Assembly (NCBI GenBank): GCA_038889075.1
Contig: JAWAHS010000011.1
Coordinates: 25,385-52,101 of the forward strand
Direction of reading: 5' to 3'
Source: Ignisphaera sp.
GTDB taxonomy: Archaea; Thermoproteota; Thermoprotei_A; Sulfolobales; Ignisphaeraceae
DNA length: 26,717 bases
Of this stretch, positions 8,143 to 15,773 are shown piece after piece. The notes below the pieces were generated by a model. It was not told the origin of the DNA. It searched no databases and saw nothing but the letters and a program-made list of their open reading frames with translations. Position 1 is the first letter of the stretch. Each line of letters opens with the position of its first letter. The position numbers were made by a program, and so were the translations under genes.

Positions 8143-9363
8143 CTATGTTGCGGCAACTATTTCTATCACATCGTTATCTTTAAGAGTATAGTCCTTCCCT
8201 ACTCTCTGTTTAGTTTTAGCATCTATTGCGTATAGAAATCTCTTACCGAGATCTGTATGAACCATGTATGCAAGCTCTATCGCCTTAGTACCCCGTGGCA
8301 CGAGGTAGGAATCAGGTAGTATATTACCTTTACTATCTGTATATGAATCGGAGTCCTCAACAGGGTATACAACAATTCTATTCAATGCATCAAATATAGC
8401 TCTATTCAATGTTTGCTGAACGCCTGTTCCTCCAAACTCCTTCAATATTCTATTAATGCTCTCCAATACCCTCAATTGTTGCTGTGTAACGCCAGTCGCA
8501 TCCGTGATCTTAAATGACGGATCACCCGGTATGTACTCTATTATTTTCTTTTCGGCTGCTTTCCTAAGTATAAGTTCACCTAGAGCAGAGACAGGAACTA
8601 TAATTCTATCAGGCAGAGCCCTTCTCATCTCTTTTAAAACATCTACAGCCTCGGGAATATCGATTTTATTAGCAGCAATTATAATAGGCTTCGCTACAAT
8701 CCTTAGATTGTGTATAAACATCCTGAGCTCCTCATCCCTCCAACTAGATGGCTTTACGTTTTCAAGCTTTGAGAGTGCTAGAGCCTTAACAACGTGCTCC
8801 CTTGTTATAGAGAGTCCAGAGAGTCTCTGGGCAAGCGAATCCACAACCTGTCCAGGATTCAGGTGATCGAGACCTCTAGAGAATCTGGGCCAGTCACGCG
8901 AAATTATACCATACATCCACTCCTCGTATTCGTATTCAATGGTTAGAACATCGTCTATAGGGTTTCTGAAGCCAGGCTTTACAGGTCTGCCATCCTCATC
9001 AGTCGAACCCGAAGCATCCACAACGTGTATCAATGCATCTGCTTGTCTGATAGAGTCTAGGAATCTGTTTCCGAGACCTCTACCCTTATGTGCGTCTTTA
9101 ACCAGACCTGGTAAATCTACCAATACTATTGGAATGAAACGCTCTCCATTTATACATATGGATGTAACAGGGGTACACCTAGGGAGACCGAGTTCCCTAT
9201 GAATGCACGTCTTGCGTACATATGCTATACCTGTATTAGGCTCCATTGTTACAAAGGGTCTGTTCTCAATTTTTACAGTAATCAGTGTAGCTGCAGAGAA
9301 GAATGTTGATTTACCAACATTTGTCTTACCAAGTAAGCCTATGTAGATCTTTGGTGGAGCAAT
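8143..9363 (-). CDS. Obg/YchF-family translation-associated GTPase/ATPase (COG0012), ~406 aa with probable ATT start
   Basis: G1 GKTNVGKST and G2 RPFVT lie in frame upstream of ORF-track start 9246; DLPGL, NKID, C-terminal TGS (AYMVHTDL). Confidence 0.92.
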   Translation of the reverse strand: MAPPKIYIGLLGKTNVGKSTFFSAATLITVKIENRPFVTMEPNTGIAYVRKTCIHRELGLPRCTPVTSICINGERFIPIVLVDLPGLVKDAHKGRGLGNRFLDSIRQADALIHVVDASGSTDEDGRPVKPGFRNPIDDVLTIEYEYEEWMYGIISRDWPRFSRGLDHLNPGQVVDSLAQRLSGLSITREHVVKALALSKLENVKPSSWRDEELRMFIHNLRIVAKPIIIAANKIDIPEAVDVLKEMRRALPDRIIVPVSALGELILRKAAEKKIIEYIPGDPSFKITDATGVTQQQLRVLESINRILKEFGGTGVQQTLNRAIFDALNRIVVYPVEDSDSYTDSKGNILPDSYLVPRGTKAIELAYMVHTDLGKRFLYAIDAKTKQRVGKDYTLKDNDVIEIVAAT

Positions 9364-9469
9364 GGCTCTTTCACCTCATAGGTAGAAATTTCATCACAGC
9401 TTAAAACCTATTAACATTTATACGCTCTCTATGTAGTAGACCTGTAGAATAATGCAAAAGGTGCTCTAC

Positions 9470-10141
9470 TTGGCAAAATCTCTATACAGCTACATATCTG
9501 AGCAGTGGAAGAGACCGTACGAAGGTGAACATGGAAAGCTGATGAAACAGAGACTTATGGAGTGGCGTAGGCAGCCATCAATAGTTAGAGTTGAAAGACC
9601 GACGAGGCTAGATAAAGCTAGGAGACTTGGCTATAAGGTTAAAATAGGCTTTATAGTCGTACGGGTTAGGGTTAGGAAAGGTGGTCTGAGGAAGCCAAGA
9701 CCATCCTCGGGTAGGAGACCAAAAAGAATGGGTGTATATGGGCATTCGCCAAAAAAGAGTCTTAGGCTTATTGCTGAGGAAAGAGCAGCTAGAAAGTATA
9801 GAAATCTGGAGGTATTAAACAGCTACTACGTAGGGGAAGACGGTCTCTACAAATACTACGAGGTTATAATGGTCGACCCTTCACATCCTGCAATACTTAA
9901 TGACCCCGACATAAACTGGATTGCCAATACAAGCCAGCGTGGCAGAGTCTTCAGAGGAAAGACAGGTGCGGCTAGGAAAGCTAGAGGTCTACTCAGCTCT
10001 AGAGGTTTGAAGGGTACGCATAAATATAAGTGGAAGAAGAAAGCAAAGGAGAGAATGTATAGGAAGAGGCACGAGGCAAGCCGTGGTTCAAGGCTAATAG
10101 CACCAAAGGAAATATACGAGGATCTTGGTAGGGAAGGTTAG
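9470..10141 (+). CDS. rpl15e: 50S ribosomal protein L15e
   Basis: [46 protein letters not shown]; TTG 9470 after AGGTG. Confidence 0.97.
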
Positions 10142-10153
10142 CAGAGAGAAAAA
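10142..10153 (-). terminator. T-rich archaeal terminator candidate for the ATPase operon
   Basis: Minus-strand TTTTTCTCTCTGC directly after the ATPase stop, between convergent genes. Confidence 0.4.
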
Positions 10154-11239
10154 CTAGCTCTCTAAAGGATCCATATAGATAAACATAGGAGCCTCAAAGG
10201 GATACATCCTTACAACACATTCGCCTTGACCGCTTAGCTTAACTGCTCTATCAACTCCTTTTCTTGATAAATTCAAGTACCTCGATATTCTACTCCAATA
10301 GCTATGAGTCGGAGAAGCCATAGCTAGTAAAAGAGCTGAGCTACCGCTGATCGCATCAGCATACACCCCAACATCATCTATACTCTGCGTAGCCATGAAA
10401 AACGCAATGCCATATCCTCTCGAATAGCGTGTGAGAATCTGGATGAGTTCGTCTATTATGTGTGGTGCAACGTGCCATAATTCATCCAGCACCACAACCC
10501 TTTGTGGAGTATTTGAAAATGATAGGTTTGCATTCCTTAATATTCTATCAATTGTATAATATATTATGAAACTACTCAAGGCAGTGCTGCCTAGAAATAC
10601 CTCTTTTAAATTAAAAACACTATAACCATTCAGCACACCTTCTACTGGATCCGATCCTCTAGAAGGATATACTTCAAAGACCTTTACAAGATCATTTAAA
10701 GCATCGATATTTTCGACAACATCATACAAACGTTCAACCGGTTCACATCGGTAACAGATATACTTAATATTCTCATACAGCGTTCTGTATAGTGATGATG
10801 AAATTCCGTATACCTTTTGGAAAACTTTAAGAAACGCATTGACATTCTGTTCACTATTCACCCTACTATCATCGCAAAAGCATAGAGGTAGTGGCGTTTT
10901 CAATGGATTGAATTCACGTACATCTAGACCGCTAAACTTAAGTAAATGATAATGCTCAGCCTTTACATCAAAAACTGTGAGCACGGACTTGAACTTTTCA
11001 GCAATTCTATATGATAGAGTTGATAGCGCAACGCTCTTCCCAGAACCACTTGGACCAACAATAAATACATGCGATGTTATTGTAGAGCGGGGATCCCAAT
11101 ACACCTTTGAACCGTAGTCTAAGTCCATCCCTACATACAGACCCTCTACACCTTGGGTTTGAATACAGAGAGAGAGTAGCGGATTTACATATACTAGTGA
11201 GTCTACTAACAGTCTACTACCCTTCGGCTTTATAGCCTC
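10154..11239 (-). CDS. VirB4/HerA-like P-loop ATPase, C-terminal part (open frame extends 37 codons upstream of ATG 11128)
   Basis: GLYVG.D..G.KVYWD..SHVFIVGPSGSGKS (Walker A), FDVKAEH, VVVLDELWH (Walker B), RYSRGYG..FMATQS. Confidence 0.85.
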   Translation of the reverse strand, partial: EAIKPKGSRLLVDSLVYVNPLLSLCIQTQGVEGLYVGMDLDYGSKVYWDPRSTITSHVFIVGPSGSGKSVALSTLSYRIAEKFKSVLTVFDVKAEHYHLLKFSGLDVREFNPLKTPLPLCFCDDSRVNSEQNVNAFLKVFQKVYGISSSLYRTLYENIKYICYRCEPVERLYDVVENIDALNDLVKVFEVYPSRGSDPVEGVLNGYSVFNLKEVFLGSTALSSFIIYYTIDRILRNANLSFSNTPQRVVVLDELWHVAPHIIDELIQILTRYSRGYGIAFFMATQSIDDVGVYADAISGSSALLLAMASPTHSYWSRISRYLNLSRKGVDRAVKLSGQGECVVRMYPFEAPMFIYMDPLES

Positions 11240-11822
11240 AAAAATTGATTATATGAAGTGCCTTAAGGGGGTCCACCACGGGTTTCAATACAATATTCAT
11301 TGTATTCTTAGCGGTGTATTCGATCGTAGAGAGCCTCTCTATATAGGAGACATCATCGTCACATATAAATGCAATGATATTAGATACATCTACAGGGGTT
11401 ATACCTCTCAAAATTCTACGCCTTACATCAATTAGTTTCTCTACATAGCTACGTAATTTAGTGTTAGATTTATCGAGATCAAGCTCCACAAGCTTCATCT
11501 GCAATTTATGATTAATCTGTGAAATGTAGCTGTCTATATTTACAGGATGTAGAGAAAAATATGTAACGGTTTTACATCCCGGTATTGCAAATAGATTTAT
11601 GAAGCGCTTTACATGGTACACAATATCTGTATACTCCAATTCATTAACTGGAGCTGTACAGCTTGAAATTGTATAGAGTGCAATGATGCTACTTATACCA
11701 TCAGCCTCGCATTTAAATATGCCAGGCTTTACAGCACGGCATTTACCTATGGCAGTATTCCTTACAATATTTGATAAGATATACCTAATCTGGTGAAGAC
11801 CCATGACTATGTTTCTGAACAC
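11238..11822 (-). CDS. Hypothetical protein resembling the N-terminal/central region of VirB4-like ATPases; possible frameshift partner of downstream ATPase
   Basis: 194-aa ORF with helical hairpin (KLQMKLVELDLD..NTKLRSYVEKL...RRILRG) then strand-helix; ends AAT TTT TGA. Confidence 0.7.
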   Translation of the reverse strand: MFRNIVMGLHQIRYILSNIVRNTAIGKCRAVKPGIFKCEADGISSIIALYTISSCTAPVNELEYTDIVYHVKRFINLFAIPGCKTVTYFSLHPVNIDSYISQINHKLQMKLVELDLDKSNTKLRSYVEKLIDVRRRILRGITPVDVSNIIAFICDDDVSYIERLSTIEYTAKNTMNIVLKPVVDPLKALHIINF

Positions 11823-14250
11823 TGCTCCTAATCCCCAGAAGTGTAGCTATTTTTAAAGCGATACGATTCGTATAGAGAATAAGGTTCTTTAATGGAATAT
11901 CAATGCGTATCAATTTCATGCTGCCAGGCTCTATGACTATAAAGTTTGTATAGCCTTTGATAATTTCATCCAGATTGAATGGCAATTCTAGCCTTAATGC
12001 TTTACCCGGCTCTATACGGTGGAGGGAGTCTTGTGAAATGATATGGATGGGTAAATCAGTGCATCTGTTGATAATATTGACATGTATTTTCAACCCGTTG
12101 TTGTAACGTAGATGAGTATTGTCATTGTACATGCATCTGTGGGGTATCCTTACTCTAAGATGGGGATCCTTGCTGAGCTGTAGATTAAGTCCTTCAGTAA
12201 ACTCTGTATAGAATTTTCTATTATATTGAAGTAGTATAGTTGTGGTATCCTTTCTTTGCCTATCTAAAGCAACCTCTACTAGAATAGCTAGGATATCGTT
12301 ACATGGACTGATATCCGTGCAGCTACTACTGGATCTAATCACTCTATTACTACATATAACCTCAATACTGCTAAGCTCCATGTCAGCTCTCTCTAAAGGA
12401 GCAGTATCTATACATATACTTACGTTACCGCCTTTGGCATTGCTGATAGTATTTACAATGCTATCCATATCAATAATGTTTATATATGAAGATTTGATCA
12501 TCTGCCCAAGAATGGCGTTGCCGACCTCCTTAGCTACATATATGGAGTCGTTTGCTGATATTCTAGAATCTACATCAAATTTTACGATACCGTTTTTAAA
12601 GACACCTCTAACTATTCCACCCTCTTTAACTAGCAGAAATGTTTTTCCATTGATGGCCTCCCCTAACGATTTAGGTGGAATCACGATACTGCTAGAGGCT
12701 TCTCTATTAACTATATACATTTTATGCAGCTGGATCTCAGGAGGTCTTTTGCTATGAACTTCGATTTTCCTGTTACGGCTAATAGAAACTCTATATTCTC
12801 TCAGTAGACCTTGAATACCCAACGAAAATGTATCGGAATTACCGAATCTACTATCTATAGCAATGGTAGCAATACTCCTTAGAGAATCCACTCTATGGAT
12901 GCTGTATGGAAGCTCTCTATATCCTTCAAACTTCAATGGTGTATGAAGAGCGGCATCTGGAAGGGCAACAGATACATTTGTAGAAACATCGCGTAATAAA
13001 TGAGGATGTCGATCGATATACCGATCAATATATCTCAAATCTATAAAGGCTATCCTACCAATCCTATCGATACAAGTAATGATACCCTTTCCAATAGAGG
13101 AGCACCTAGCTATATATGAATGACTAGAGAGAATTCTTTCTAGATGGATACTGCTACCCATTTCAATAAAGTAAATCTCTATGCTATCTCCTCTTAGTAG
13201 TACCATATAGTCGCCTGAGATGTAGCCTAGAACTCTTCTACTGGAAGGAATCATTACAAAGGATAGATTATCCAAATCAAAAATATAGATACCTTTGCTA
13301 GTGGAGAGTAGTGCGAGATTTCTATGCGGATCCACTGATACATTATATACATCCTCTAGTCTAGTACTAATTAGAGAAAACTCTCTTTTTTCATCAATAG
13401 AGTAGAGGGTTAGAAAGTTCTTTGCGAAACCAAGTATGCTATTGTTAGATAGCAGAGCTAAGGGTTTGAGATGTCGGTTAAATTCTATGGTATTACACAA
13501 ACCATTCTTGTAATAAGCTATTACACCATTATTGGATAGCTCTATGTAAGCGATATTTGAGTATAGGTAGAGGATAGCATTAGATGATATGGAGATATCT
13601 CTATCTAATGGAAATTCGATACCATATAATCCATCAGATATTAGAACAGAGGCTTCTGTATTACTATTGAAACATACCAGGGCTTTATAGTGATTGTGTC
13701 TAAGAGCAGACAGGGAATCGCAGTAGCAATGCTCTATAAACTCTATATCGGTGTCTTTAACCACCATTTTATATATCTTTTGATTACGATTGCCATCTAA
13801 AAACACTACACGGTTCTCGAATCCAATGGGATACACATCTACACCTGTGGCAATACCGTCTATCGGTTTTACCTCCAGACCTCTATCTATGGAACTCGAG
13901 ATTATGCTCAAAGGAATGTTATCGAAGTTTGTTACAATTGCTGATGATATGTTAAGCGGATATACTCTACAGTCACTATAGTCAATTCTTAAGGGATCTA
14001 GTGCATATTGATCCATAACTGTGTTATAAGCATTTATGGAATCTCGATATCTGTATACAAATGGAGCTGAGGAAATGAATGGAAAACCATTGTAGCTATA
14101 GGCTATAAATGGGTGTGAGATGAGATACGTACCTCTTAACCTTAAGAGGGCAACTCTATCTGTTAGGTAGATATGCATAGATGTCTTATACGGATCAATA
14201 ATATCCTTCCGCAATTCTAAAAGCTGTATAATATCCTTAGCCATTTCCAT
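11785..14250 (-). CDS. Large beta-rich hypothetical protein (possible beta-propeller plus C-terminal Ig-like domain)
   Basis: 821-aa ORF; blade-like segments (LALLSTSKGIYIFDL, ITCIDRIGRIAFIDL); no clear signal peptide or TM helix. Confidence 0.7.
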   Translation of the reverse strand: MEMAKDIIQLLELRKDIIDPYKTSMHIYLTDRVALLRLRGTYLISHPFIAYSYNGFPFISSAPFVYRYRDSINAYNTVMDQYALDPLRIDYSDCRVYPLNISSAIVTNFDNIPLSIISSSIDRGLEVKPIDGIATGVDVYPIGFENRVVFLDGNRNQKIYKMVVKDTDIEFIEHCYCDSLSALRHNHYKALVCFNSNTEASVLISDGLYGIEFPLDRDISISSNAILYLYSNIAYIELSNNGVIAYYKNGLCNTIEFNRHLKPLALLSNNSILGFAKNFLTLYSIDEKREFSLISTRLEDVYNVSVDPHRNLALLSTSKGIYIFDLDNLSFVMIPSSRRVLGYISGDYMVLLRGDSIEIYFIEMGSSIHLERILSSHSYIARCSSIGKGIITCIDRIGRIAFIDLRYIDRYIDRHPHLLRDVSTNVSVALPDAALHTPLKFEGYRELPYSIHRVDSLRSIATIAIDSRFGNSDTFSLGIQGLLREYRVSISRNRKIEVHSKRPPEIQLHKMYIVNREASSSIVIPPKSLGEAINGKTFLLVKEGGIVRGVFKNGIVKFDVDSRISANDSIYVAKEVGNAILGQMIKSSYINIIDMDSIVNTISNAKGGNVSICIDTAPLERADMELSSIEVICSNRVIRSSSSCTDISPCNDILAILVEVALDRQRKDTTTILLQYNRKFYTEFTEGLNLQLSKDPHLRVRIPHRCMYNDNTHLRYNNGLKIHVNIINRCTDLPIHIISQDSLHRIEPGKALRLELPFNLDEIIKGYTNFIVIEPGSMKLIRIDIPLKNLILYTNRIALKIATLLGIRSSVQKHSHGSSPD

Positions 14251-14349
14251 CCCTATTAATTTGACAGAATATAAAGCGTATCTATTATCTATGAGGCTAG
14301 CTACTTATATCGTGTCTAGATTATTAAATCTAATTCAGGTGCATTTAAG

Positions 14350-14670
14350 TTGTCCCCAAGGGAAAAGCTATTAACAATATTATCAGCTCTAAAGGATAGA
14401 ATTGCATCACCAAGCGACATAATCGCCTCCACCGGACTGCCAAGGTATGAGGTACTAGCAGCATTTCATATACTAGAGGCCTTGAATATAATTAGCGTTG
14501 TCTATGTAAGGGGTAACTATAAGCTCTACAGACTCTCGGATTTGGGATTAAAATTGCTTAGCGCCCTAGGCGATAATAAGAGTTTCGATATAGTTATACA
14601 GTATGTAGAGGAAGGTAGTCATATAAATGCGAATCCGAATGAAGACCGTGTTCTAGCATCAACAACCTAA
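14350..14670 (+). CDS. Winged helix-turn-helix DNA-binding protein
   Basis: SPSDIIASTGLPRYEV....ILEALNII...YRLSDLG; TTG after AGGTG SD. Confidence 0.8.
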   Translation: MSPREKLLTILSALKDRIASPSDIIASTGLPRYEVLAAFHILEALNIISVVYVRGNYKLYRLSDLGLKLLSALGDNKSFDIVIQYVEEGSHINANPNEDRVLASTT

Positions 14671-14705
14671 AAATTTGCAGCTCTCAAAGATATACACGAT
14701 AAAAA

Positions 14706-15773
14706 TTGCGAAACATGTTTAAAAATGATTATATAGCTTTAGTGTTTGCACACACACTACGATTTTTAGGTGTCGATAGTGTAGTAATTAGCCGTAAAGC
14801 TGTAAAAAAGTATCTGTATTCAAGCAAGGGTAATTCGATAGAAATGCTGCACGCTATTATCAACAGTCTATTGCTTAGAAGAGTGAAAATATGCATGGAG
14901 GAAGTATACGGTATTCCTATGGGTTTCTATAAGGGAGTGCTACTTTTATATGATGTAAAGAGATGTATAGAGGCGAAATTCCATTTAATGGACATGTATG
15001 AAGAATGTACTACGGATGTAACAAATAATGTCATTTCACTCTTTCTAAAAATCTATACAAGAATTCCGATGATACTATTGGACGCCATCATATGGGAGCT
15101 CCATCATGATGAGGAAAAGAAAAAGGCTGTAAAGCAGTTGGCAGTTTTGATCAGCACAATAAGGAAAAGACTAACGGATCTTAATGCTATATTCGTTTCA
15201 CCTCCAACTGAGCTCATGAATTTTATGAAAGAAATGAACAGCGCTATAGAGATTGACGAAGGCTCTCTATACAAGATCCTAGACCCGTCTAAGACTATTA
15301 TACTAGATCCGTATGCTTCTGAAGAGCTAAGCGTACAGGATGTATTAGAGAATCAGTATTTTATTATAGGATTTCTTGTGGATGATAAATTTCCTAGACC
15401 CTATGCCACGTACATGTTAAAGCTTTTACGGGGAATAGATTTTAAAAGAAGATCAATAAAACTAAATGGATCTATAATAGGTGTTCCTAAGGAGATAAAT
15501 AAGATTATCGATATAATTCTCGATGTGAAACTAGGTGGTTTAATGCTAGAGGATGCGATAATAAGTAATATGAGTATTGATGATAAGATTCGGAGAATAA
15601 TATATGATATTGAGAAATACATAGCGGAAGGAAAGGTAATTGATGAACAGTGTATTAGAAGATTATCCGAATTCTATAATTTGGATAAAGGTCAGTTTGA
15701 AAAGATATATAAGAGAATTAGAAAGCTATTTAGTATCGCTGGGCAGAACATAGTAGGTCAATTTACCTCTTAG
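14706..15773 (+). CDS. trm10: Archaeal Trm10 tRNA (purine-9-N1) methyltransferase (SPOUT)
   Basis: ILDPYA.EEL, YFIIGFLVDD, RRSIKLNGSIIGVPKEINKII motifs. Confidence 0.8.
   Translation: MRNMFKNDYIALVFAHTLRFLGVDSVVISRKAVKKYLYSSKGNSIEMLHAIINSLLLRRVKICMEEVYGIPMGFYKGVLLLYDVKRCIEAKFHLMDMYEECTTDVTNNVISLFLKIYTRIPMILLDAIIWELHHDEEKKKAVKQLAVLISTIRKRLTDLNAIFVSPPTELMNFMKEMNSAIEIDEGSLYKILDPSKTIILDPYASEELSVQDVLENQYFIIGFLVDDKFPRPYATYMLKLLRGIDFKRRSIKLNGSIIGVPKEINKIIDIILDVKLGGLMLEDAIISNMSIDDKIRRIIYDIEKYIAEGKVIDEQCIRRLSEFYNLDKGQFEKIYKRIRKLFSIAGQNIVGQFTS

Follow-up and report, generated by a model that had tools for sequence, protein, structure and literature searches.

The window analysed here is a stretch of 26,717 nucleotides (nt) from Ignisphaera sp. 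(assembly GCA_038889075.1, contig JAWAHS010000011.1, positions 25,385 to 52,101), whose source genome of 1.95 Mb we call G000. On its minus strand, two overlapping open reading frames (ORFs) appear to make up one gene, a cedB-like gene for a VirB4-family ATPase, that is broken by a change of reading frame (Table 1). The upstream ORF (N-ORF), which may start at GTG 11822 or at ATG 11804, ends within the sequence ...CAT ATA ATC AAT TTT TGA GGC TAT AAA..., which contains a run of five T (T5) at 11244-11240. Read one base further on, the sequence continues as GAG GCT ATA, and this +1 frame stays open for 361 codons, from GAG 11239 to the TAG at 10156-10154. A preliminary description of the window had proposed that a +1 programmed frameshift at a TTT-TGA shifty stop fuses the two ORFs, and the elements on which it relied were all found at the locus: the ORF of 194 amino acids (aa) ending in ATC AAT TTT TGA G with its T5 run, the 37 stop-free codons leading from GAG into ATG 11128, and the TAA that closes the +1 frame just upstream. 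Translation with TGAG read as Glu confirmed the length of the fusion, 194 + 37 + 324 = 555 aa. We searched the whole genome for the same geometry, that is, an in-frame TTT_YGN (Y, pyrimidine) preceded by at least 100 open codons, with a 0-frame stop at most 20 codons after it and a +1 frame that is open for 150 codons or more. This locus was the single match, which indicates more than a chance arrangement.

Table 1. Features of the split cedB-like gene and of the ORF upstream of it, in window coordinates.
Feature	Position	Strand	Remarks
N-ORF, 0 frame	11238..11822	-	194 codons and TGA; N-terminal domain of a CedB/VirB4-like protein
Proposed shift site, AAT TTT TGA (AAU_UUU_UGA)	11238..11246	-	P-site UUU at 11243-11241, A-site UGA at 11240-11238
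TAA closing the +1 frame 3 codons upstream of GAG	11249..11251	-	A switch of frame is possible only within 11248-11238
Linker, 37 codons of the +1 frame (GAG GCT ATA...)	11129..11239	-	Contains no ATG, GTG or TTG; ends in the conserved GLYVG
C half as seen by gene callers, 324 codons	10154..11128	-	From ATG 11128 to TAG 10154; P-loop ATPase domain of HerA/VirB4 type
Whole gene, if recoded	10154..11822	-	T-GAG read as one step would give a 555-aa CedB-like VirB4-family ATPase
Upstream ORF, 821 codons	11785..14250	-	Family unassigned, with no Pfam or NCBIfam match; overlaps the start of the N-ORF

The C half matched the Pfam families DUF87 (the HerA central domain) and AAA_10 and a TraG P-loop, and its Walker A motif (GPSGSGKS, at about 11056-11033) and an LDE motif were conserved among orthologues, while a Pfam search with the N half gave no match. 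The fusion of the two halves matched NCBIfam NF041017, the DNA import protein CedB, with 141.6 bits (E 3.3e-41), a score below the equivalog cut-off of 700 bits. The match extended from residue 89 to residue 552 and from position 116 to position 588 of the 590 in the profile, running across the junction. When G000 was scanned with the CedB profile, the C half was the best locus at 129 bits, and the next one scored 32.4 bits. Orthologues from a family that we denote f13, reached with the same query, scored 797 and 840 bits, above the cut-off, and judged by these scores are CedB proper. At a split locus of another family, f6, the N-ORF covered profile positions 58-215 and the C part positions 248-588. 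Close homologues in the databases are named 'DUF87 domain-containing protein' and have 324-382 aa (Ignisphaera sp., Ignisphaera aggregans and a 'Sulfolobales archaeon', with 66% identity for the last and 35-38% for those named Ignisphaera), showing that only the C half has been annotated. The orthologues of the N-ORF were 29-71% identical.

An AlphaFold2 model of the fusion, computed from an alignment of 87 rows, reached a mean predicted local distance difference test score (pLDDT) of 90.4 and a predicted template modelling score of 0.68. It comprises a confident N domain (residues 1-195), a linker of low pLDDT (about 196-225) and the ATPase domain (228-555), and it places the junction, F194|E195, at the end of the last helix of the N domain. 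M232, the residue encoded by ATG 11128, is part of the strand with which the ATPase core begins, in agreement with the earlier suggestion that this ATG is internal since the GLYVG motif begins before it. Foldseek ranked first the full-length TrwK/VirB4 from the type IV secretion system of R388 (8rtd_O, E 5.5e-18, 578 columns), followed by HerA and VirB4 ATPase domains, and when the PDB was searched by sequence, the fusion had 0 matches at E <= 0.01. Taken together, the profile and model results are best explained if the locus is one gene, predicted to encode a CedB-like ATPase of the VirB4 family, the motor of the crenarchaeal Ced DNA-import system. That the fused halves form a VirB4-like ATPase, as the preliminary description had it, was borne out by a CedB profile that spans the junction and by a predicted structure with one VirB4-like fold. 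In DNA import, CedB has CedA, CedA1 and CedA2 as its partners. The CedB of Sulfolobaceae (NF041017), the best family match over both halves, has the two-domain VirB4-like fold in common with the fusion. The fusion differs from it in its low score and in the lack of a detectable hydrophobic N-terminal segment, a crude hydropathy scan of the N-ORF having found no window above 1.8. In excerpts of PMC11868833, mention of a 'TM-deleted CedB' indicates that CedB carries a membrane segment.

To place the break among related genes, we compared C-half matches across genomes. In 41 related genomes, 28 best matches (from 28 genomes) were found, in two size classes: 23 had open frames of 346-404 aa and 5 had frames of 593-615 aa. 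We then sorted 301 genomes, sampled across the order, by family. In family f1, to which G000 belongs, a match was present in 24 of the 25 other genomes, and all were short forms, two of them cut by contig ends; in f6, 13 of 14 genomes had a match, again all short (385-405 aa). By contrast, families f3, f4, f7, f8, f10, f12 and f13 had single frames of 550-637 aa where these were not cut short, and two f3 matches had 141 and 313 aa. For closer analysis we set 38 split loci (25 f1 genomes including G000, and 13 f6 genomes) against 30 unsplit ones. The C frame was the N frame +1 in all 38 split loci, in which the N-ORF had 187-247 open codons and the two frames overlapped by 8-89 nt, and in an alignment with the 30 unsplit orthologues the fusion was collinear through the junction. 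The preliminary description had asked for orthologues with a TTT-TGA junction at the same +1 offset. The offset was found in every split locus; TGA occurred in 3 of the 38 only, and UUU_YGN was conserved in its place. It had also held that orthologues all fused in frame would speak against recoding, and this state is confined to the more distant families, f1 and f6 being split.

The number of times the split arose could be either one or two: the backbone of a quick IQ-TREE tree was left open, its best topology requiring two changes and one also being compatible, and the FastTree topology was discarded as unreliable for this question. Comparison of the f4 sequence TTT TTT CGT GGG TTC with the f6 sequence TTT TTT CGG GTT T suggests that an indel occurred directly after CG. 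One locus, L028 (G019:C7), is labelled as family f1, genus g4, and its cedB grouped with f6 in both trees; it has an f6-type TTT TTT CGA site and a long linker, and could reflect gene transfer or an uncertain family assignment.

Each of the 38 overlaps contained one 0-frame TTT_YGN, in which YGN was CGN in 32 loci (CGT 13, CGG 8, CGC 7, CGA 4, and never an AGR codon for Arg), TGA in 3 and TGT in 3. The TTT TGA loci were those of G000 and its two closest relatives, G012 and G009. The site read TTT TTT CGN in f6 and in one f1 genus, and AAT TTT YGN in the rest of f1, with AAA as the one exception. The 0-frame stop followed 0-9 codons after the YGN codon and the 0-frame tail was not conserved; the first codon of the +1 frame was always GNN, yet it encoded Glu, Asp, Val, Ala or Gly. 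Within each of four groups, T-TTT-YG was the sole nucleotide block that was invariant or nearly so, in T runs that differed in length (T5 here, T4 in most Ignisphaera-like genomes, T6 in f6 and in the unsplit forms). UUU_CGN is both the ancestral and the commonest form, with UGA a C-to-T variant local to G000 and its two relatives. Of the shifty stop proposed earlier, the +1 site is upheld, and the stop codon as a conserved signal is not, UUU_CGN standing in 32 of the 38 loci.

A control for codon constraint was made on 54 rows, from the 38 split loci and from 16 unsplit ones that carry the motif, which span at least 15 genera and whose kinship inflates the codon counts that follow. The junction Phe was TTT in 53 of 53 rows, and the codon after it was CGN in 48, TGA in 3, TGT in 3 and AGR in none, whereas three other conserved Arg columns in the same rows had AGR 126 times and CGN 20 times. 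All other columns in which a single residue fills 85% or more of the rows mixed synonymous codons (Asn, His, Asp, Lys, Gly and Pro; for instance AAT 31 and AAC 15, CAT 23 and CAC 28, GAT 40 and GAC 14). Synonymous sites were near saturation even in close pairs, the proportion of synonymous differences (pS) being 0.30-0.72. Among the sense codons in the 1442 long ORFs of G000, CGN are used least (1.05-2.93 per 1000, compared with 34.4 for AGA). TTT-CGN encodes 66 of the 1170 Phe-Arg pairs of this genome, and 1 of 20 Phe-Phe-Arg (FFR) tripeptides is written TTT TTT CGN; this other in-frame occurrence lies among the same long ORFs.

The motif is not confined to split genes. All 17 unsplit orthologues with FFR at the homologous position had TTT TTT CGN (CGA 14, CGG 2, CGT 1), with neither TTC nor AGR. 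The carriers were 15 of the 19 f3 rows, the single f4 row and one contig from an uncultured member of the Desulfurococcaceae, and in the 16 measured the +1 frame shuts after 7-15 codons. The 14 unsplit rows without the motif belong to f13, f12, f7, f10 and f8 and include four of f3. The presence of TTT TTT CGN in unsplit genes indicates that the signal predates the split and was retained where no joining of ORFs is needed.

The two halves, and likewise the linker that has no start codon, are subject to purifying selection. In 12 close pairs, the ratio of nonsynonymous to synonymous substitution rates (dN/dS) was 0.05-0.19 in the N half and 0.06-0.20 in the C half; in the 36 codons that directly follow the shift it was 0.03-0.43, in the 10 pairs with unsaturated dS. 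A conserved independent start for the C half was sought in the 38 split loci and not found. Six of them, L001, L005, L014, L019, L020 and L043, the G000 locus being among the six, are devoid of ATG, GTG and TTG in the +1 frame ahead of the GxYxG strand. The scans were made with a Shine-Dalgarno core that also occurs in the window at 9377-9371; a match of at least 5 nt lay upstream of a candidate canonical start in 1 of the 38 loci. With CTG, ATT, ATA and ATC allowed as well, in the +1 frame the core preceded a start-like codon in 3 of the 38 loci, compared with 1 and 6 in the other two frames.

Considering the shared offset in all 38 loci, the invariant UUU-pyrimidine-G, the collinear unsplit orthologues and the single predicted fold, all of which favour the fusion first proposed, we regard it as probable that a programmed +1 ribosomal frameshift joins both cedB ORFs. 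In the mechanism that we propose, a ribosome translating the N-domain ORF would reach the site with peptidyl-tRNA-Phe on the P-site UUU and a slowly decoded codon in the A site, UGA here and a rare CGN Arg codon in most relatives, and would pause. The tRNA-Phe would then slip forward by one base, onto UUU here (P-site UUU 11242-11240, next codon GAG 11239-11237) or onto UUC in the relatives. The GNN codon, GAG here, would be read next, and translation would proceed through the flexible linker into the ATPase domain to yield the 555-aa protein; ribosomes that do not slip would release the 194-aa N-domain protein. The anatomy, the conservation, the synonymous constraint, the collinearity and the fold have been established here, whereas the slip itself, its efficiency and any role of the short product are inferred. 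As the preliminary description had supposed, recoding would set the ratio of the short to the long product.

A number of observations weigh against a frameshift at this site. In-frame TTT_CGN is mildly depleted in G000 (66 observed, about 91 expected; for TTC_CGN 39 and about 50), which makes it unlikely that the site alone is highly efficient. No stimulator was found: the folding z-scores of the 60 nt downstream were between +0.44 and -2.06 in 12 loci, by mononucleotide shuffles at 37 C, a weak test for a hyperthermophile; no conserved flanking block beyond T-TTT-YG was present in any of the four groups; and an Rfam scan of 9000-15000 gave 0 matches. CGN is rare but decodable, since single tRNA-Arg genes with the anticodons GCG, CCG and UCG exist, and tRNA scarcity as a cause of slow decoding was dropped for this reason; the tRNA set, from ARAGORN, counts 37 tRNAs and is incomplete, tRNA-Phe having been missed. 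The UGU that occupies the A site in 3 loci is not rare, at 6.3 per 1000. The mild depletion and the tRNA-Arg genes for CGN together point to an efficiency that is probably low to moderate, with the 194-aa N-domain protein as the probable major product. The remaining points concern the joining of the ORFs as such. The break lies at a domain boundary, exactly between the N domain and the low-confidence linker, where true gene fissions also tend to fall; a canonical start is present somewhere in the linker in 32 of 38 loci, where independent initiation is possible; an apparent ATT start in a neighbouring GTPase gene, described below, may indicate non-canonical initiation in this organism; and the motif, being kept in unsplit genes, would have some function that is independent of joining two ORFs.

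Codon-pair use in G000 showed further skews around TTT. The pairs TTT-TGT (27 observed, 76 expected), TTT-TGC (24 and 40) and TTT-TAG (3 and 17) are underused, and TTC-TGT and TTC-TGC are overused. This pattern could reflect avoidance of slip-prone contexts in which a U run is followed by a pyrimidine.

The last group of objections is shared by an account of the locus as a true gene fission, in which an indel at the domain boundary separated the gene and the N and ATPase domains are made separately and then assemble. Translation of the ATPase half would begin either at ATG 11128 or within the linker, at a start that is non-canonical or variable, and would come about through reinitiation or from a leaderless transcript arising inside the gene. 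Gene callers and databases indeed present the C half as a separate protein, some canonical start codon lies at most 15 codons from the site in 28 of the 38 loci, and conservation of a motif that unsplit genes also keep is no proof of joining. Those start positions vary, none exists in the six loci named above, and the combination of Shine-Dalgarno core and start-like codon is no more frequent in the +1 frame than in the others. A protein initiated at ATG 11128 would have its N terminus within the first beta-strand of the ATPase core, past the conserved GxYxG, and the start-less codons of the linker are under purifying selection. Fission also leaves unexplained the constant +1 offset, the absence of any drift of the Arg codon to AGR and the restriction of first-base changes to C to T, and we consider it unlikely. 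A sub-case, with the same problem of start codons, is that the T-run-CG motif serves a different purpose, for example as a programmed translational pause between domains or as a signal in RNA or DNA, that it is simply kept beside the break, and that split lineages make no full-length protein. The invariance of TTT TTT CGN in the 17 unsplit orthologues, which need no change of frame, agrees with such a role. A pause, however, requires that a rare Arg codon be read as Arg, yet six split lineages have TGA or TGT with the UUU-pyrimidine-G kept, and neither an Rfam family nor a conserved structure was found. We regard this explanation as quite improbable.

Two further explanations are transcriptional slippage on the T run, which would restore the frame in a fraction of the mRNAs, and a false or decayed sequence. 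The site is a homopolymer, and a one-base excess in a homopolymer is a classic sequencing artefact. Documented transcriptional slippage needs runs of roughly 8 or more, whereas the invariant part here is T4 followed by pyrimidine-G, and slippage accounts neither for the conserved G nor for the conservation of CGN. A contig of 847 nt from a metatranscriptomic library (X16, corresponding to 10982-11828) crosses the junction with 12 substitutions, no gap and the genomic T5. Considering that the library may contain DNA and that contigs show the majority form only, it gives a weak hint of co-transcription and of the lack of bulk correction at the RNA level. Slippage is in our view very improbable. 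As to the integrity of the sequence, which the preliminary description had wished to see checked, contigs from three other DNA studies (runs X3, X6 and X11) each span 10100-11900 in one piece with 5-7 substitutions and no indel, showing that the T5 run is real. Combined with the same offset in 38 genomes and with two halves that have dN/dS of at most 0.2 and no further disruptions, these contigs rule out an assembly error or a decaying pseudogene, to which we give a negligible chance.

If a programmed +1 frameshift operates in the split genes, the invariant motif of the unsplit genes raises a broader and more tentative possibility, which we would not yet favour, that T-TTT-YG is an ancient +1 recoding switch in cedB across much of the Desulfurococcaceae-like and Ignisphaera-like archaea. 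Two proteins would then come from the gene in each lineage, an N-domain-only form and the full-length motor. In the unsplit genes, slipping would give the short form, as in influenza PA-X, and the conserved hexa-T-CG of these genes suggests that a type IV secretion-like ATPase has a short isoform that is regulated; in two families, an indel next to the site would have turned the default around, with slipping now giving the long form, as in amalgaviruses. With such a switch, programmed frameshifting by +1 would be seen for the first time in a gene of cellular archaea, and a single UUU_CGN rule would hold on eukaryote-like ribosomes from archaea to animals. In the main text of two papers on the Ced system the word 'frameshift' does not occur, and in one of them neither does 'split', although supplements could list split cedB genes. 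For annotation, the 324-382-aa DUF87 proteins and the unnamed ORFs of about 200 aa would be two parts of one CedB/VirB4 motor, a change that bears on which hyperthermophiles have a complete DNA-import system.

The 821-codon ORF upstream is probably in the same operon as the split gene. In 19 loci its C-terminal part is conserved immediately upstream of the split gene, with 22-52% identity in the 18 relatives, and the ORF contains no strongly hydrophobic window. At the unsplit loci L021, L022, L027 and L049, a large ORF likewise ends 11-62 nt inside the cedB frame. The product of the 821-codon ORF may be an unrecognised partner of CedB. Another neighbour on the minus strand encodes an Obg/YchF-like GTPase. 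As listed from ATG 9246 this ORF is without its P-loop, and the motif GLLGKTNVGKST lies in frame upstream, in a region that extends to the stop at 9378-9376 and contains no ATG, GTG or TTG. A perfect GAGGTGA (9377-9371) is located 7 nt before an ATT (9363-9361), which suggests that the GTPase gene starts at this ATT.

The preliminary description had likened the junction to prfB, the gene for release factor 2 (RF2), which has the site CUU_UGA_C and, like UUU_UGA in G000, involves a +1 slip of the P-site tRNA at UGA. The prfB shift depends on a Shine-Dalgarno-like stimulator lying upstream and is autoregulated through RF2, whereas no conserved upstream element was present at the cedB site in any of the four groups and the stop codon is derived, occurring in 3 of 38 loci. 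The analogy holds for the UGA slip in G000, and it is weaker than the likeness to the UUU_CGN sites of amalgaviruses and PA-X. According to excerpts of PMC5880360, UUU_CGN shifting to U_UUC_GNN is an established +1 motif of plant amalgaviruses, of virus Z of Zygosaccharomyces bailii (ZbV-Z) and of influenza A virus (UCC_UUU_CGU), in which CGN is called a rare Arg codon, any of the five GNN residues can be accommodated and there is a slight preference for U ahead of the motif. Judged by its nucleotides, the archaeal site fits this rule in every testable respect. The site resembles that of ORF1+2 of the amalgaviruses and ZbV-Z, where, in the excerpted text of PMC5880360 and PMC5052127, motif and register are the same, the last residue of ORF1 is Phe and is followed by Val, Ala, Asp, Glu or Gly, the downstream ORF is without a start of its own and no obvious stimulatory structure exists, as at the cedB site. 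These are double-stranded RNA viruses of plants and fungi that use eukaryotic ribosomes, whereas cedB is chromosomal and archaeal, has UGA and UGU variants in the A site and has a T before the motif (AAT or TTT).

In influenza A virus, the PA-X site (UCC_UUU_CGU) lies in frame within a full-length gene and slipping gives the N domain with a short tail, a configuration like that of the 17 unsplit orthologues, whereas in the window gene the default and the shifted product are swapped. Excerpts of PMC5009743, which also cover PA-X, state that no stimulator is evident at the influenza site, whose efficiency is very low, and that UUU_Ynn is particularly liable to +1 shifts in bacteria. The bacterial example given in the same excerpts is Yersinia YopN-TyeA, in which a UUU-to-UUY slip of tRNA-Phe fuses adjacent ORFs of a secretion-system component; it has low efficiency and is restricted to certain species, whereas the cedB site is kept across two archaeal families. 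Among archaea, fucA1 of Saccharolobus solfataricus is likewise a chromosomal gene in two ORFs whose full-length product needs a frameshift, but the shift is -1 on an A_AAA_AAT heptamer and homologues elsewhere are full length (PMC8211752, in excerpt), while the cedB shift would be +1 and the split is found in 38 genomes. In its excerpted text, this 2021 review of archaeal recoding gives fucA1 as the sole demonstrated cellular archaeal case and presumes a +1 shift only in the haloarchaeal virus HSTV-2, and the part of the GeneTack survey available to us mentions for archaea only magnesium chelatase (-1). The papers found on UUU_CGN are virus papers, mostly on amalgaviruses, and work on vertebrate ASXL genes. 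As far as our literature searches show, no +1 frameshift has been reported for a cellular archaeal gene. The locus is a +1 candidate with unusually strong comparative support, from 38 genomes, two families and constraint at the level of nucleotides, and it makes testable both programmed +1 shifts in archaea and the question of whether their rules match the eukaryotic ones. Within the reach of the same searches, the mechanism is known in kind, and what is new is that it would act in a cellular archaeal gene, the depth of its conservation and its occurrence in both split and unsplit configurations.

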